A stretch of DNA of 56,730 bases from NCBI GenBank assembly GCA_964369145.1, contig CAYJEE010000002.1, forward strand, positions 1 through 56,730. The letters are read 5' to 3'. A model generated the notes under the pieces. That model made no database searches. It was not told the DNA's origin and saw nothing but the letters and a program-made list of their open reading frames with translations. Shown piece after piece: positions 3,209 to 29,134 of the stretch. The translations under genes were made by a program, and so were the position numbers. Position 1 is the first letter of the stretch. Every line of letters begins with the position of its first letter. Origin of the DNA: an uncultured Candidatus Saccharibacteria bacterium (GTDB taxonomy: Bacteria; Patescibacteriota; Minisyncoccia; Phycocordibacterales; DATDWN01).

Positions 3209-3684
3209 ATGTGGTATACTGGATTAGTGGCTGAGCGATATATTAGAACACCAAATACCAGTTGTTCAATTTGTAACAAACTTGTATACAGACGACCAGC
3301 TGAATTACTAAAAAACAATGGAAAAGCCTTTTGTAGTATGGCGTGTTTTGGTATTTCTTGTAGAAGAGAGCTCCCTGTGTGGTCTGTGGGAAATTAATCT
3401 TAGCTACTTTCCACAAGAAAACATGTAGTAGAAGTTGTGCAAATGTCCACAGAACAGGTATTCAGTATAAGATCAACCGACCAAGGGATAAAGTAAAAAC
3501 TCAACAGGCTCTTAAGGTAAGATTACTTGTAGTGAGAGGTGAAAAATGTGAAAGGTGTGAATTTAATATTCCAGAGATACTGCAAGTTCACCATAAAGAT
3601 CGGAACAGAAACAACAATACCCTCGAAAACCTTGAGCTTATTTGTCCAAACTGTCACTGTAAAGAACATTATCTAAAAAATTAA
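3209..3684 (+). pseudogene. HNH endonuclease with zinc-ribbon repeats, split by a frameshift
   Basis: Two overlapping ORFs in different frames (3209-3397 frame 2; 3379-3684 frame 1, open back to the TAG at 3361). Part 1 has CSIC...CSMAC. Part 2 has C(V)VCGK...CSRSC plus the HNH core HHKDRNRNNNTLENLELICPNCH. Joining them needs a frame change between about 3364 and 3397. Confidence 0.6.
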
Positions 3685-3791
3685 TAGATTGCATTATTAG
3701 TCTTTTCTGATAAGATAAGCCTTGTAACAAAGAGTATTTTGAATGTCATATTCGCCAAATGATTGACATATATATTATTTAATGTTATAAT

Positions 3792-3877
3792 GGAGGAGTC
3801 GCATAGTTGGTCTAGTGCACTCGTCTTGAAAACGAGCATGCCGCAAGGCATCGAGAGTTCGAATCTCTCCTCCTCCG
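3792..3877 (+). tRNA. tRNA-Ser (anticodon UGA), type II with long variable arm
   Basis: Hand-folded cloverleaf. Acceptor GGAGGAG/CTCCTCC, anticodon stem CTCGT/ACGAG with loop CTTGAAA (TGA), long variable arm CATGCCGCAAGGCATC, T arm GAGAG-TTCGAAT-CTCTC, discriminator G. No encoded CCA. Confidence 0.9.
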
Positions 3878-3920
3878 CAAATCAAAGACACCCTTAGGGG
3901 TGTTTTTGATTTGCGGAGGA
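3871..3920. terminator. 23-bp-arm palindrome / bidirectional terminator that starts inside the tRNA-Ser 3' acceptor strand
   Basis: tcctccgcaaatcaaagacaccc - ttag - gggtgtttttgatttgcggagga. 22 of 23 positions pair. Confidence 0.7.
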
Positions 3921-3941
3921 AGCAAAACTAAAAGTTTTGCG

Positions 3942-4055
3942 GGTGAGATTCGAACGGACTCGCGGTCTACGAGCGCAACAGCGCTTGTCGCGAGTCCGGT
4001 GCCCAGAAATTCTTCATCTGACGAGATGAAGAATTTCGAGGGAGAAATTCTCACC
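3942..4055 (-). ncRNA. candidate structured small RNA, copy A of a 3-member family (function unknown)
   Basis: Read on the minus strand. Closing stem GGTGAGA/TCTCACC (4055-4049 with 3948-3942). 14-bp perfect hairpin GAAATTCTTCATCT-CGTC-AGATGAAGAATTTC (4037-4006). Then TGGGCACCGGACTCGCGAC and a 10-bp stem CGGACTCGCG/CGCGAGTCCG enclosing AGCGC-TGTT-GCGCT. -10-like TAAATA at 4068-4063. Ends at the palindrome 3871-3920. Not a canonical tRNA. Confidence 0.4.
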
Positions 4056-4068
4056 TCCTTGTATTTAT

Positions 4069-4764
4069 TTGCTACAATTAGTACTAATGAAAAAATTACC
4101 CAACGTAACCCTTATCGGAATAGACTGTGTAGATGTAGAAAGAATTCGAAAAGCTCTGGATATCTCATCTAAAGAAATTGAGTTTGCAGAAGTTAAACTA
4201 CTTACTTCCCTTCCAACTGATGACATAAGAAAAGTGGAGATACCTCACATTGATTCAATCGAGGCTTTTTCTAAATTTTGTATTTGTAATTTAATCGAGT
4301 ATGTAGATACTGATTTTGTACTACTTGTACAACACGATGGATTTATCCTAAACCCACAGTCCTGGACTGATGAATTTTTGAATTATGACTACATTGGTGC
4401 ACCCTGGTTTGTTCACGATGAGTTTTGGTTTACACGATTTAATTTCCCAAGAGAACTCTTTGATACAACTGTAGTTGGAAACGGTGGTTTTTCTTTACGG
4501 AGCAAGAATTTTCTGGAAACCTCAAAAATATTAGCCAATGAAGGAGCCTTTGCAGCTTACCACCCTGAAGATTTAGCAATGTGTGTTTGGAATCGAAAAG
4601 CTATGGAGAATGCGGGTATTCATTTCGCTCCCCCAGAAGTCGCGAAAATATTTAGTGTCGAAGGTCAAGATCATGTATACAAAGATCAGTTTGGTTTTCA
4701 TGGATTACAATGGACTGATATTTCAAAATGGATAGAGGCAAATCCTGAGTGGGACATCAAGTAA
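4069..4764 (+). CDS. DUF5672-like protein (putative glycosyltransferase-fold enzyme)
   Basis: 231-aa ORF; likely start at MKKLPNV (4087), 8 nt after a TACAAT box. Motifs YDYIGAPW and GNGGFSLRSK recall the DUF5672 family as I remember it. Confidence 0.5.
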   Translation: MLQLVLMKKLPNVTLIGIDCVDVERIRKALDISSKEIEFAEVKLLTSLPTDDIRKVEIPHIDSIEAFSKFCICNLIEYVDTDFVLLVQHDGFILNPQSWTDEFLNYDYIGAPWFVHDEFWFTRFNFPRELFDTTVVGNGGFSLRSKNFLETSKILANEGAFAAYHPEDLAMCVWNRKAMENAGIHFAPPEVAKIFSVEGQDHVYKDQFGFHGLQWTDISKWIEANPEWDIK

Positions 4765-6656: not shown

Positions 6657-6763
6657 GCTAATTTAAAATCAAAAGGAGTTGATTATGTAAAACACAGTTA
6701 ACTCCTTTTTAATTCCCTTCTATTCTACAGTTCTAAACGCATCTAACCACTCCCGCACAAAAC

Positions 6764-6789
6764 AAAAAAACCGCATATGCGGTTTTTTT
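6764..6789. terminator. bidirectional intrinsic terminator
   Basis: aaaaaaaccgca/tgcggttttttt palindrome between convergent genes. Confidence 0.8.
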
Positions 6790-6792
6790 GTT

Positions 6793-7887
6793 TTACCTAA
6801 ACTCAATCACCACCACTTCCCCTCGATTAAACGTTCTCATTCGCGGACCAAAGGTTCCAATACCGTTGGTAGTAATACTATTGAGCCCATTTTTAGTAAC
6901 CAGCCCGTACACATATTCTTTGTAGACTCGTCGTGCGATATAATTGCCTGGCCACACCTGTCCACCGTGTGTGTGCCCTGAGACCACCAAAAATACTCCG
7001 GCATCTGTAAGTTCTTTATGGAATATTGGTTCGTGATTGAGTACGATTGCTGGATTGGATGCTGTAATACCTTCCCGAGCCAAAATCCCTTCAACCTCAA
7101 GTGGATCCTTAATTGTTCGATAATTAAGTCCGAATACCGGCACTCCAAAAATCTGCGCCTGACTGTCGACGAGCACTGTCATACCTGCACGCTGTGCGCT
7201 CAAAAGAAATTCACTATACGGGCCGTACTCCTCATGGTTGCCTGGTGTAAAAAATACAGGAACCTGTGTGGTTAATTTTTTAAACTCGTTTTCTATATCG
7301 GTGAAATCAAATGCTGCACCATCAAACATATCTCCTGCAATCAACACAGCATCTGGTTTAGTATCAAGAACTTTTTGTACAACATGCCGAGCAAAGAGTG
7401 CTTGGTTTGCGGGGCCAAAGTGCGTATCTGCAACAAGAGCGATTCGCTTACCCACAAGCTCTGTATATTGTGGAGGTGTTTTAACCGTATAAGTAACGGT
7501 CCGTGTCATAAACGCCTGCACAATACCCGTTATCCCCACCACTGATGCGATCATGTATAACGCAAAAGATATTTTTGCAAGCGGTACACTGAAAAATTGA
7601 CCAAGCAAGAAAAAACCACAAATAATAACTGATGCGAAAAACCAATATAAGAATACACCTCCTACATATGAGGTAATAAGATAAAACACCTGAGACATGA
7701 GATGTGGCGAGTACCTAAACCACACATTTGCAAGAATAAATGAAAGCGGTGTAAACAACGCCACACTAATAATGATACGTTTCAGCAACAGAGTCGCACC
7801 TAATCCAATAATGGCACCAAGCGCGGTAAACCCTGACACAGCAAGTAAAAATAAACTGAGTATTGAAAAGAAAATAAGTTGTTCCAT
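6793..7887 (-). CDS. membrane-anchored metallophosphoesterase
   Basis: The ORF extends to 7983, but the likely start is MEQLIFF at 7887. Four to five N-terminal TM helices, then calcineurin-like motifs: VADTHFG, GDMFDG, PGNHE, VSGHTHGGQ. Confidence 0.8.
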   Translation of the reverse strand: MEQLIFFSILSLFLLAVSGFTALGAIIGLGATLLLKRIIISVALFTPLSFILANVWFRYSPHLMSQVFYLITSYVGGVFLYWFFASVIICGFFLLGQFFSVPLAKISFALYMIASVVGITGIVQAFMTRTVTYTVKTPPQYTELVGKRIALVADTHFGPANQALFARHVVQKVLDTKPDAVLIAGDMFDGAAFDFTDIENEFKKLTTQVPVFFTPGNHEEYGPYSEFLLSAQRAGMTVLVDSQAQIFGVPVFGLNYRTIKDPLEVEGILAREGITASNPAIVLNHEPIFHKELTDAGVFLVVSGHTHGGQVWPGNYIARRVYKEYVYGLVTKNGLNSITTNGIGTFGPRMRTFNRGEVVVIEFR

Positions 7888-8435: not shown

Positions 8436-8507
8436 GCTCTCGTAGTTTAATGGATAGAATGCTGGCCTGCGAAGCTGGCGATCCAGGTTCGATTCCTGGC
8501 GAGAGCA
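8436..8507 (+). tRNA. tRNA-Arg, anticodon reads GCG in my hand fold
   Basis: Acceptor GCTCTCG/CGAGAGC, D arm GTTT-AATGGATA-GAAT, anticodon stem CTGGC/GCTGG (two G-U pairs), loop CTGCGAA, T arm CCAGG-TTCGATT-CCTGG, discriminator A. No encoded CCA. Confidence 0.8.
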
Positions 8508-8552
8508 CAATAGAAAAAATCCCTTTAAAGGGATTTTTTCTATTGTGCTCTC
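8501..8552. terminator. perfect 23-bp-arm palindrome starting inside the tRNA-Arg 3' acceptor strand
   Basis: gagagcacaatagaaaaaatccc-tttaaa-gggattttttctattgtgctctc. Confidence 0.7.
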
Positions 8553-8605
8553 GCAGCAAAAGCGAAGCTCTTACGTTTGGAATCGAAATACTCCTGGCGT
8601 GTATA

Positions 8606-13952: not shown

Positions 13953-13996
13953 AAAACAGAAAAAAATTACCCCTAGGGCCACCCTAGGGGTAATTT

Positions 13997-14893: not shown

Positions 14894-14922
14894 AAAAAAT
14901 CCCAAACTGATGGGATTTTTTT
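14894..14922. terminator. terminator hairpin, copy 1 of an exact 28-nt duplicate
   Basis: aaaaaatcccaaactgatgggatttttt. The identical string recurs at 15053-15080. Confidence 0.75.
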
Positions 14923-14946
14923 AGGCACCAAGTTGTTTATAAGAAT

Positions 14947-15046
14947 GGTGCACTTTGGATAATTTCAATTCCGTCGAATTGAAATTTCCTTCGGCCCACG
15001 ACTCGACCGTTTTTGCTACTACAAAAACATGTCTCCGTCGCGCACC
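14947..15046 (+). ncRNA. candidate structured small RNA, copy B of the family
   Basis: Hairpin AATTTCAATTC-CGTC-GAATTGAAATT (14961-14986), then TCCTTCGGCCCACGACTCGACC, hairpin GTTTTTG-CTACTA-CAAAAAC (15009-15028), then ATGTCTCCGTCGCGCACC. -10-like TATAAG at 14938-14943. Terminated by the hairpin at 15053-15080. Confidence 0.4.
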
Positions 15047-15052
15047 AGTAGC

Positions 15053-15080
15053 AAAAAATCCCAAACTGATGGGATTTTTT
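15053..15080. terminator. terminator hairpin, copy 2; shared by tRNA-Lys (-) and element B (+)
   Basis: Exact copy of 14894-14921. The extended palindrome 15040-15090 includes the tRNA-Lys 3' end (gcgcaccag / ctggtgcgc). Confidence 0.75.
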
Positions 15081-15083
15081 GTC

Positions 15084-15159
15084 TGGTGCGCCCGGCAGGA
15101 ATCGAACCTGCGACCATCTCCTTAAAAGGGAGCTGCTCTACCGACTGAGCTACGGGCGC
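15084..15159 (-). tRNA. tRNA-Lys (anticodon UUU), CCA encoded
   Basis: Reverse complement: GCGCCCG TA GCTC AGTCGGTA GAGC A GCTCC CTTTTAA GGAGA TGGTC GCAGG TTCGATT CCTGC CGGGCGC A CCA. Confidence 0.9.
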
Positions 15160-15204
15160 AAAAGCTTTAATAAATCAAACTGCTTTGATTTATTAATGAC
15201 TTTT

Positions 15205-15290
15205 GTGAGCCGCAAACATGTTTCGCTACCAAGCGAAACAGTTGAGGCCGGGTCGGGAAATTTTACGAGCGACGGCGAGTAAAATATTCT
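15205..15290 (-). ncRNA. candidate structured small RNA, copy C (more diverged), upstream of tRNA-Lys on the same strand
   Basis: Minus strand: ATTTTAC-TCGC-CGTC-GCTC-GTAAAAT (15285-15260), TTCCCGACCCGGCCTCAACT, hairpin GTTTCGC-TTGGTA-GCGAAAC (15239-15220), ATGTTTGCGGC. Followed by the AT-rich hairpin 15167-15198. Confidence 0.3.
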
Positions 15291-15396
15291 TGACCATAAA
15301 GTCTTTTGGGAACCTTCAAAATATATCAGAAAATAACAATTTGTCCAACCTTTACTTCTCCTCAAAAACTGCTAATCTAGTTTTAGGAGCAGTTTA

Positions 15397-29092: not shown

Positions 29093-29134
29093 TTACAAAT
29101 AACTACGAATGAATTCATTCGTAGTTATTTGTAA
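29093..29134. repeat. perfect loop-less 21+21 nt palindrome centred on GAATTC; carries the ACGAAT/ATTCGT motif
   Basis: ttacaaataactacgaatgaa|ttcattcgtagttatttgtaa. Shares ttcattcgtag.t..tttgta with 11972-11990. Confidence 0.7.

Follow-up and report, generated by a model that had tools for sequence, protein, structure and literature searches.

Three structured intergenic elements, copies A, B, and C, lie in the window (the whole stretch of DNA that was analyzed, 56,730 nt), and each of them adjoins a tRNA gene: tRNA-Ser in the case of copy A and tRNA-Lys in the case of copies B and C. A first-pass annotation of the sequence had pointed out this linkage, and its elements were confirmed where it had placed them (3942 to 4055, 14947 to 15046, and 15205 to 15290), with every sequence that it quoted being found in the window. 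The flanking proteins are PilM, RuvX, a SpoU methylase, and a lamin-tail-domain protein, a set that indicates Patescibacteria, and relatives of the SpoU methylase were found solely in Paceibacteria/Parcubacteria-type MAGs (up to 92% identity). ARAGORN predicted three true tRNAs in the window and nothing more. All three of these tRNA genes bear a unit of the kind described below or a remnant of one. The features of the two loci are as follows, with P1 denoting the closing helix of an element and P2 and P3 the two hairpins within it.

3763-3791: sigma-70 promoter of tRNA-Ser, from the promoter scan; 12 of 12 consensus positions, with TG
3792..3878, plus strand: tRNA-Ser(UGA), from ARAGORN and Rfam RF00005 (57 bits); its 3' end is the segment X that is copied in copy A
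3871..3920, plus strand: trailer hairpin 3' of tRNA-Ser, an inverted repeat with arms 3871-3893 and 3898-3920 (96% complementary); the final 8 nt of the tRNA form part of the 5' arm
3922..3940, plus strand: short hairpin GCAAAAC-UAAAA-GUUUUGC, read from the sequence, directly 5' of copy A
3941..4056, sense on the plus strand: copy A; P1 pairs 3941-3951 with 4044-4056, P2 is 3956-3997, and P3 is 4002-4042 with loop GACG
14894..14921, no strand assigned: T1', a second copy of hairpin T1 (28-mer, 100% identical), which closes the B unit
14947..15046, sense on the minus strand: copy B; P1 pairs 15046-15040 with 14953-14947, P2 is 15042-14997, and P3 is 14989-14957 with loop GACG
15053..15080, no strand assigned: hairpin T1 (A-run, stem, U-run), a 28-nt repeat between tRNA-Lys and copy B
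15084..15159, minus strand: tRNA-Lys(UUU), from ARAGORN and Rfam (74 bits), with copies B and C on its two sides
15167..15196, plus strand: hairpin T0, with a CUGC tetraloop on the plus strand, from the inverted-repeat search; 5' of copy C
15198..15303, sense on the plus strand and divergent from tRNA-Lys: copy C; P1 pairs 15198-15203 with 15298-15303, P2 is 15209-15248, and P3 is 15250-15295, with loop GACG and tandem G-A/A-G
15320..15347, minus strand: promoter-like site TGGACA-16-TATATT with TG, from the promoter scan; copy C lies between it and tRNA-Lys, whose promoter it probably is

The bounds first proposed for copy C captured a genuine copy but were too short, as its real span includes the closing stem GACUUU/AAAGUC. 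To count the elements, we used a covariance model (R2) that was built from B/C-type copies only, taken from the window genome and related genomes. Run over the 56.7-kb window with filters off, R2 gave three copies as the full count: C (E = 4e-23; 97.4 bits), B (E = 4e-21; 89.5 bits), and A (E = 4e-6; 30.8 bits). The best remaining match had an E of about 0.08. Compared with dinucleotide shuffles, the three folds had z scores of −4.1 to −9.2, and none of 200 shuffles equaled the real fold. Copy A folds at −67.5 kcal/mol (z = −9.2), copy C at −44.5 kcal/mol (z = −6.1), and copy B at −43.9 to −45.6 kcal/mol, varying with the stretch that was folded, versus −32.8 kcal/mol on the plus strand. The mean column identity in an alignment of the three is 65%. 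Further copies were recovered in related loci by blastn and R2, including orthologues of A (L001, L003, and L024, all 3' of tRNA-Ser), of B (L001, L002, and L023), and of C (L001, L005, and L023, in the corresponding divergent position).

The first-pass annotation had read A on the minus strand, B on the plus strand, and C on the minus strand. In all 16 copies compared (3 from the window and 13 homologues), the opposite strand folds better, by 2 to 16 kcal/mol. Across 117 distinct family members, the paired columns contain 181 G-U/U-G cells versus 19 A-C/C-A cells, and 108 of 114 sequences retain the same G-U wobble at the base of P3. Read in this orientation, the hairpin 5' of the element has a CUGC loop, not GCAG; the loop fits CUNC in 57 of 106 family members, where CTGC accounts for 0.9% of all tetraloop hairpins in those loci. 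Together, the better fold, the G-U excess, and the CUGC/CUNC orientation establish that the sense strands are plus for A, minus for B, and plus for C.

Copies A, B, and C belong to a large family of Paceibacteria (Patescibacteria/CPR) modules, each about 100 to 130 nt long and here called M. M is an RNA-level three-way junction of P1, P2, and P3 that is read on the same strand as its neighboring tRNA. J1/2, which joins P1 to P2, bears a CGA(A/G) motif. P2 contains a conserved GA-rich internal loop (CGGAG/CGAG) and ends in an AGCA or AGUA (AGYA) loop. A GGGUCG block lies 5' of P3, which is a long, AU-rich hairpin with the invariant G-U, a variable mismatch, and a bulged A in UAUC. The P3 loop is GNCG (GACG in 63 sequences, GGCG in 20, and GUCG in 7), with tandem G-A/A-G under it in 56 of 117. 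On the 3' side, UGACC is followed by the 3' strand of P1. The module is usually preceded by a hairpin, which in many cases has a CUNC loop and in many cases resembles a terminator, so that the whole unit reads tRNA or tmRNA, hairpin, P1 5' strand, P2, GGGUCG, P3, UGACC, P1 3' strand. Unpaired nucleotides and loops are conserved in the family.

A family of structured elements with compensatory changes had been proposed from the three window copies, and the homologues bear this out. In the 117 sequences, 91.9% of the cells at paired positions can pair, versus 38 to 49% with slid partners; double changes occur at all 32 modeled pairs, and 0 of 500 shuffles matched the observed values, in an alignment that was fitted to the model and therefore somewhat favors the structure. 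In a 10-sequence MAFFT seed, 91.5% of cells pair, versus 36 to 50% when slid, and double changes are seen at 23 of 32 pairs. The covariation is strong in both P3 and P2, which are the first hairpin (loop CGTC, or GACG on the complementary strand) and the second hairpin of the original description, in the order given there. The G+C-rich block that had been described as single stranded between them turns out to be mostly paired: it makes up the P3 base and the outer portion of P2. P1 lies outside the model and was assessed separately by an anchored analysis: pairs 1 to 4 are paired in 96, 86, 81, and 72% of cases, versus a background of 42%, and their pair types switch among G-C, U-A, and A-U. 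In most copies, P1 is 3 to 8 bp long.

Over 150 copies of the family are present in the genomes of relatives and in metagenomes. A synteny-selected set, searched by blastn and R2, gave 28 R2 matches in 69 related genome loci. A motif-selected set, in which metagenome contigs were scanned for the motif only, without bias toward any locus, and then searched with R2, gave 124 further matches in 100 loci. About 14 matches of the motif-selected sample are G+C-rich false positives inside ORFs. Copies within the same contig have a median identity of 64%, versus 65% for random pairs, indicating that most copies are old and kept by selection and have not spread lately. A search of 2.9 million viral contigs gave two matches, both of them false and inside ORFs. 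We found no prior description of M in the open-access literature, a survey of 224 motifs included, and M is apparently an undescribed family.

Comparison with known families points the same way. Rfam 15, applied to the window copies both at the gathering threshold and at E ≤ 10, gave no family match to M, and in 18 related loci, Rfam at the gathering threshold gave tRNA, tmRNA, and one SAM riboswitch only. A tRNA or tRNA pseudogene was rejected, as RF00005 had no match on either strand of A, B, or C at E ≤ 10. A likeness to Y RNA/YrlA, which had been suggested earlier, was not upheld: Rfam gave none at E ≤ 10, and the scanned flanking ORFs (PilM, RuvX, HNH, DUF5672, SpoU methylase, and Pol III delta subunit) lack a Ro/TROVE-type domain. 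M is not an intrinsic terminator, in agreement with the earlier statement that the elements are not plain terminators; it is branched and has no U run after it, and separate terminator-like hairpins (T1, T1', and T0) flank it. Known self-cleaving ribozymes (hammerhead, twister, twister-sister, pistol, hatchet, and HDV-like) were discarded by Rfam, the sole match being a partial hammerhead-like one in the P3 loop region (15 bits; E = 0.62) where the gathering score is 34. K-turns and H/ACA and C/D-box RNAs do not fit either, as their defining bulges and boxes are missing from the internal loops. For the window and L001, the P2 loop and the 5' flank could form a pseudoknot, but this pairing shows no covariation in L002 and L023 (by eye). 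Finally, copies B and C could form an rRNA-like stalk around tRNA-Lys (duplex of −79 kcal/mol), but within the full transcript, the local folds win, and the complementarity of B and C is not kept.

We then considered the position of M relative to the genes around it. M starts about 40 nt 3' of a tRNA or tmRNA gene and lies on the same strand. In the synteny-selected set, 22 of 30 copies are 17 to 130 nt 3' of a same-strand tRNA, and five "C-type" copies are divergent, at 41 to 44 nt from the tRNA 5' end. In the motif-only metagenome sample, 57 matches have a same-strand tRNA upstream, with a sharp peak at 87 to 95 nt from the tRNA end to the start of P3; the remainder of that sample consists of second units of arrays, matches at contig edges, or matches 3' of tmRNA genes. 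More than 20 tRNA isoacceptor types are accompanied by M, and in three copies (L091, L163, and L113), the upstream gene is an Rfam-confirmed tmRNA. For 17 copies, co-oriented tRNAs lie on either side, with only 10 to 37 nt from M to the next tRNA in 7 of these, and of 13 cases checked, 11 have no promoter-like site in the 230 nt before the second tRNA. As M is the sole spacer between such tRNAs, the downstream genes would be expressed only by reading through the hairpin and M. The hairpins between tRNA and M in these operons often lack a free U run. In the window and at many other loci, a terminator-like hairpin with a U run separates the tRNA from M, so that there M would be made by read-through only. 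From this gene arrangement, M is probably transcribed in the sense direction together with the tRNA, as a spacer or trailer.

The first-pass annotation had instead proposed independent small-RNA genes (A on the minus strand, B on the plus strand, and C on the minus strand), each with a −10-like box and a terminator. Bidirectional hairpins do stand on both sides of B, and copy C is downstream of the promoter-like site on the minus strand. However, every tested copy folds worse on those strands, where the conserved wobble becomes an A-C mismatch. The −10-like boxes found no support in a promoter scan, in which the sole match on the proposed strand (14936-14963) would initiate inside the element, and a scan of 3600-4300, copy A included, gave no promoter-like site except that of tRNA-Ser. 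The elements have no room for promoters of their own; throughout the family, they are co-oriented with an upstream tRNA, and many copies lie inside tRNA operons between two co-oriented genes. We therefore find it hardly credible that the elements are independent genes.

The closing helix is tied to the sequence of the neighboring gene. P1 pairs a 5' strand (X-bar) that complements the 3' part of the adjacent tRNA (X) with a 3' strand (X') that is a direct copy of X; X itself begins in the T loop or acceptor strand and continues into the trailer. In copy A, the P1 5' strand GGTGAGATTCGAAC is complementary to the T loop and 3' end of tRNA-Ser, GTTCGAATCTCTCC. In copy B, CUGGUGCGC is matched with GCGCACCAG of tRNA-Lys, and these two segments also lengthen the stem of T1. 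In L119, P1 has 20 bp and is identical to the 3' end of tRNA-Val, while in L109, the X/X' repeat is 27 nt long, trailer included; the tmRNA loci likewise have the X, X-bar, and X' pattern. Match scores of at least 10 between X and X-bar were obtained for 72 of 88 units, versus 16 of 397 mismatched controls, and between X and X' for 17 of 88 units, versus 2 of 397 mismatched controls. Among 131 tRNAs that were not selected for M, 34% have such a complement at most 220 nt downstream, versus 4.6% of controls. The mirror covers the tRNA only from its T loop to its 3' end, with the remainder unmatched, and M as an antisense copy of an entire tRNA was accordingly discarded.

X-bar has two alternative partners: it can pair with the tRNA, which extends the intervening hairpin, or with X', which forms P1. 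When the full transcript is folded, the local folds win and the tRNA stays intact. As X-bar complements bases of the trailer as well, and never the CCA end, the relation operates in cis, within one transcript or within DNA, and not with the mature tRNA. The same relation accounts for the T-loop-like GTTCGAATC and the acceptor-like closing stem that had been noted in copy A; both are real and are present because the closing helix is the complement and the copy of the tRNA-Ser 3' end. The description "tRNA-like" thus stands as far as P1 copies the acceptor and T-stem of the neighboring tRNA, but there is no cloverleaf.

This likeness raises the question of whether M is a mimic of the tRNA "top half," with P1 resembling an acceptor/T-stem minihelix on which RNase P, RNase Z, the CCA-adding enzyme, or a synthetase would act, making M a processing signal, decoy, or adaptor. 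In a subset of copies (L119, L096, L113, and L095), P1 has 12 to 20 bp with the exact acceptor 3' strand, discriminator, and T-stem of the tRNA, and copy A bears GGUGAGAUUCGAAC/UCUCACC, derived from tRNA-Ser. In most copies, however, the 3 to 8 bp of P1 match the discriminator and trailer only (CAC|AAAA) and form no minihelix. The pairing with trailer bases and never with the CCA end, the missing T-loop/elbow, and the lack of matches to tRNA models also speak against mimicry, which we regard as very unlikely.

The units vary in number among close relatives. Tandem units occur in L147 (179-nt period, 100% identical), L091, L056, L030, and L120. L002, which is 92% identical to the window at the neighboring protein, has an extra, unrelated unit between tRNA-Lys and B; this unit has its own trailer and hairpin and is bounded by 20-nt repeats of the tRNA 3' end. 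A copy in L093 that is 98% identical occupies a non-tRNA site. The tRNA-Lys module of the window is about 80% identical to that of L023, where the neighboring SpoU protein is 57% identical. The promoter-like TGGACA-16-TATATT is 159 to 172 nt upstream of tRNA-Lys in L001, L005, and L023 and 80 nt upstream in L002, which lacks copy C, indicating that copy C is a mirror-image copy located in the tRNA leader. Copy C and its orthologues keep every feature of the family in this 5' leader, antisense to the likely tRNA promoter. Such a place, with all features intact, is awkward for a purely cotranscriptional RNA role.

How such units might arise is suggested by perfect palindromes of considerable length elsewhere between the genes of the window (8499-8554, 29093-29134, 6759-6794, and 13964-13996), which indicate that hairpin extension is common in this genome and are consistent with template switching. 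Template switching during replication has been documented to create and maintain hairpins (PMC8794818). M could then be nonfunctional palindromic DNA, with hairpins that are made, extended, and kept paired by template switching near terminators and that have no selected role; the alternation of X, X-bar, and X' is the expected product of serial hairpin extension. The process does not explain why unpaired nucleotides, G-U wobble, the bulged A, GA mismatches, and the GNCG, AGYA, and CUNC loops are kept where neighboring proteins are only 50 to 60% identical, nor why the position and orientation of M are fixed and the excess of G-U over A-C is strand specific. A purely nonfunctional origin therefore appears highly improbable.

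The main rival explanation holds that M is the structured recombination site of a nonautonomous (selfish) integrative cassette at tRNA 3' ends. In this model, the unit [hairpin - X-bar - M - X'], in the form of folded single-stranded DNA or in some other form, would present a P1 duplex identical to the segment from the tRNA T loop to the 3' end; recombination would rebuild the tRNA 3' end and leave the old end behind as X', and arrays would grow in the manner of integron cassettes or CTX-type insertions. X' is indeed a direct repeat of the tRNA or tmRNA 3' end from the T loop, a classical integration site, is up to 27 nt long, and sometimes includes the trailer. A circle that integrated at X' would leave the parts in the observed order: X, hairpin, X-bar, M, X'. 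The tandem arrays, the extra unit of L002 with its 20-nt repeats, the L093 copy away from a tRNA, the position of copy C at a mirror-image "pseudo 3' end" of tRNA-Lys, and the conservation of the tRNA-Lys module in L023 beyond that of SpoU all fit, and a cassette is the more natural account of the direct repeats, arrays, polymorphism, and copy C.

Several observations are nevertheless difficult to reconcile with a cassette. An unsystematic look revealed no associated integrase, HUH (single-strand DNA nuclease), or other recombinase gene: M units contain no ORF, the cargo ORFs of L137 and L093 have no Pfam match, that of L117 is an ABC1 kinase, and PADLOC gave weak noise only for cargo ORFs near some units. 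The islet in L137 is explained by a plain insertion that separates the tRNA from an M unit already in place. Copies in the same genome are as divergent as random pairs (about 64% identical), which argues against recent spread, and the sequence of P1 varies tRNA by tRNA, so that it cannot be a fixed recombinase site; moreover, it has just 3 to 8 bp in most copies. The G-U excess and the invariant G-U suit RNA better than DNA, and copies lie inside tRNA operons. On balance, we consider the cassette unlikely but a serious contender, and the readings as a mimic, as a palindrome, or as independent small-RNA genes less likely than either it or the explanation that we favor. Direct repeats of the 3' end, tandem arrays, and presence or absence among close relatives would also fit a mobile element.

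The explanation that we favor, and to which we would give an even chance, is that M is a processing, insulating, or decay module of tRNA precursors that binds a protein or RNase and in which P1 neutralizes the strand complementary to the tRNA; any one molecular role is much less likely than this overall explanation. M would fold by itself once X' emerges. Formation of P1 would lock X-bar and bar it from invading the upstream tRNA, and the conserved unpaired core could serve as a platform for the protein or RNase. The bound factor would then separate, trim, stabilize, or dispose of the spacer or read-through part of stable-RNA precursors. The units themselves may be born, lost, and homogenized via recombination between repeated tRNA 3' ends, together with hairpin extension by template switching, which would explain the tandem arrays and the mirror-image copy C. 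More speculatively, M and the CUNC-loop hairpin may form a CPR-specific catalytic or enzyme-recruiting RNA (a ribozyme that cleaves itself, or a dedicated RNase guide) that cuts polycistronic tRNA/tmRNA precursors with X-bar as a programmable recognition strand, or else a homology-programmed, structure-guided cassette that targets tRNA 3' ends without a recombinase of its own; we see this as a long shot.

Several known systems resemble M in part. RNAs from tRNA spacers and trailers, such as 3'ETS-leuZ of Escherichia coli, and the spacers of polycistronic tRNA precursors are transcribed from tRNA promoters and freed by tRNA processing. To our knowledge, known tRNA spacers are short, poorly structured, and unconserved beyond close relatives. 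M likewise lies between or after co-oriented tRNA genes, has no promoter of its own, and is presumably transcribed from the tRNA promoter and released by processing. In contrast to those spacers, it is a conserved three-way junction with invariant core nucleotides that accompanies more than 20 tRNA species and tmRNA, and its closing helix copies the tRNA 3' end. In plant mitochondrial t-elements and the MALAT1 mascRNA, likeness to a tRNA recruits RNase P/RNase Z beside other RNAs. The P1 helix of M can be an exact look-alike of an acceptor/T-stem, but M differs from these RNAs in having neither a cloverleaf nor a T-loop elbow, in a P1 that is mostly too short, and in leaving tRNA models unmatched.

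REP, BIME, and REPIN elements and integron attC sites are intergenic hairpin units, often near terminators, in which structure is conserved more than sequence and which form arrays and are strand specific. M shares the intergenic hairpin units, the arrays, and the strand specificity. However, the window copies adjoin tRNA genes only, copies within a contig are no closer than random members, and no RAYT (REP-associated transposase) or IntI is known to be linked to M, which is branched with a conserved core, has tRNA-dependent flanks, and occurs inside tRNA operons; an attC site, by comparison, is a single imperfect hairpin with R/L boxes near an intI gene. MITE, REP, and REPIN were rejected as identities for M, as copies in a contig are about as divergent as random pairs (median identity of 64% versus 65%) and the terminal helix changes with the tRNA. 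Williams is said to have described, in 2002, the attL/attR repeats of elements integrated in tRNA and tmRNA 3' ends. Direct repeats from the T loop to the 3' end similarly bracket the M unit, but the M "island" is usually about 150 to 200 nt and gene free, and its inverted copy X-bar pairs with the distal repeat and closes the RNA fold.

GOLLD and ROOL are large orphan structured RNAs that are often near tRNAs and possibly cotranscribed with them (PMC5737381). They are 400 to 800 nt long, often phage associated, and present once per locus (PMC5737381), whereas M is about 100 nt, chromosomal, and found at many tRNAs per genome; also unlike them, M is absent from the viral contigs apart from the two false matches and has no Rfam match. 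Every one of these analogues has a single trait in common with M, but the architecture of M is not seen in any of them.

Although the genomes of Paceibacteria are very small, a structured module of 100 to 200 nt is retained next to a large fraction of their tRNA genes, and next to tmRNA as well. This retention suggests a function in stable-RNA biogenesis or genome dynamics that is not known from model bacteria. M is a new, abundant RNA class with strong covariation and is well suited to structural work. It may offer a view of tRNA-operon processing in CPR bacteria, and it would be a natural case of an RNA helix that is rebuilt from the end of a neighboring gene, via template switching or recombination. 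Annotation of CPR genomes would gain as well, as M regions are now left blank or called as spurious ORFs. In the tRNA predictions for L023, L060, and L148, the "tRNA-Stop(UUA)" calls of ARAGORN are tRNA-Lys(UUU) read in the wrong register.

The module considered here, M, is an RNA three-way junction of roughly 100 to 130 nt downstream of tRNA and tmRNA genes, framed by a complement (X-bar) and a direct copy (X′) of the tRNA 3′ end (X). The sequence that follows tRNA-Arg(GCG) in the window looks like a decayed unit (8499-8599) that has lost its P2/P3 core, judging from these elements:

8436-8508, tRNA-Arg(GCG)
8499-8554, perfect palindrome with 28-nt arms that follows the tRNA and takes in its final 10 nt
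8577-8587, TTGGAATCGAA, 3′ of the palindrome, complement of the T loop of tRNA-Arg(GCG)
8591-8599, CTCCTGGCG, 3′ of the palindrome, copy of the T-stem/acceptor of tRNA-Arg(GCG)

Read this way, a unit or its remnant would be present at all three tRNAs of the window.

At L137 (4803-6400), a locus outside the window, a 1.4-kb islet separates tRNA-Ser(GCU) from its M unit. The islet holds one hypothetical ORF of 253 aa and another of 116 aa, neither of which had a Pfam match. The hairpin there is preceded by a decayed copy of the tRNA-Ser(GCU) 3′ end, and the 3′-end copy located 3′ of M still matches at 18 of 18 positions. At L093, two M cores (2594-2691 and 3437-3535) that are 98% identical lie about 850 nt apart, separated by a 125-aa ORF on the opposite strand. 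tRNA-Gln precedes one of them and the other adjoins no detected tRNA; the pair may represent a recent duplication or transposition.

The X-bar to X′ frame also houses a longer variant, found 3′ of tRNA-Arg, tRNA-Ser and tRNA-Pro, which carries, in order, the motifs GGGGUCGGGAAAAC..GUUUUCCCGUGGAGGAAGGCAG..GGAAAACCGUGGGUUUCC. It is probably a sister class of M, and an Rfam search with it, as with M, returned no match. Its copies are as follows:

L021, 18140-18342
L046, 15680-15883
L020, 13100-13301
L023, 8127-8330
L057, 3808-4010

Copy B of the module, near tRNA-Lys, is flanked by identical copies of a bidirectional terminator-like 28-nt hairpin (window 14894-14921 and 15053-15080). The sequence of this hairpin and the start of copy B are 100% identical in L001 and L023. 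Because this identity holds in L023 despite only 57% identity of the SpoU protein that adjoins the tRNA-Lys module, the comparison hints at horizontal exchange of the module. Other perfect palindromes in the window, intergenic and with arms of 15 to 25 nt, are probably bidirectional terminators:

29093-29134
6759-6794
13964-13996

ARAGORN additionally called a "tRNA-Stop (UUA)" at three loci outside the window:

L023, 3918-3993
L060, 2596-2669
L148, 1296-1369

We rejected a suppressor tRNA as the explanation, since the anticodon loop, CUUUUAA, is that of tRNA-Lys(UUU), from which the calls differ by one variable-region base; the UUA reading is a register artifact.

The tRNA-Ser gene near copy A has a sigma-70 promoter (window 3763-3791) matching the consensus at 12 of 12 positions (TTGACA-17-TATAAT, with TG). 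Its last base is position −1 of the tRNA, so the usual start site would be expected about 7 nt within tRNA-Ser; in related loci, the −10 box most often lies 10 to 19 nt from the tRNA. Directly 5′ of this promoter is a small 101-aa ORF with an HNH endonuclease domain (window 3379-3684), which may be left over from a homing or mobile element.
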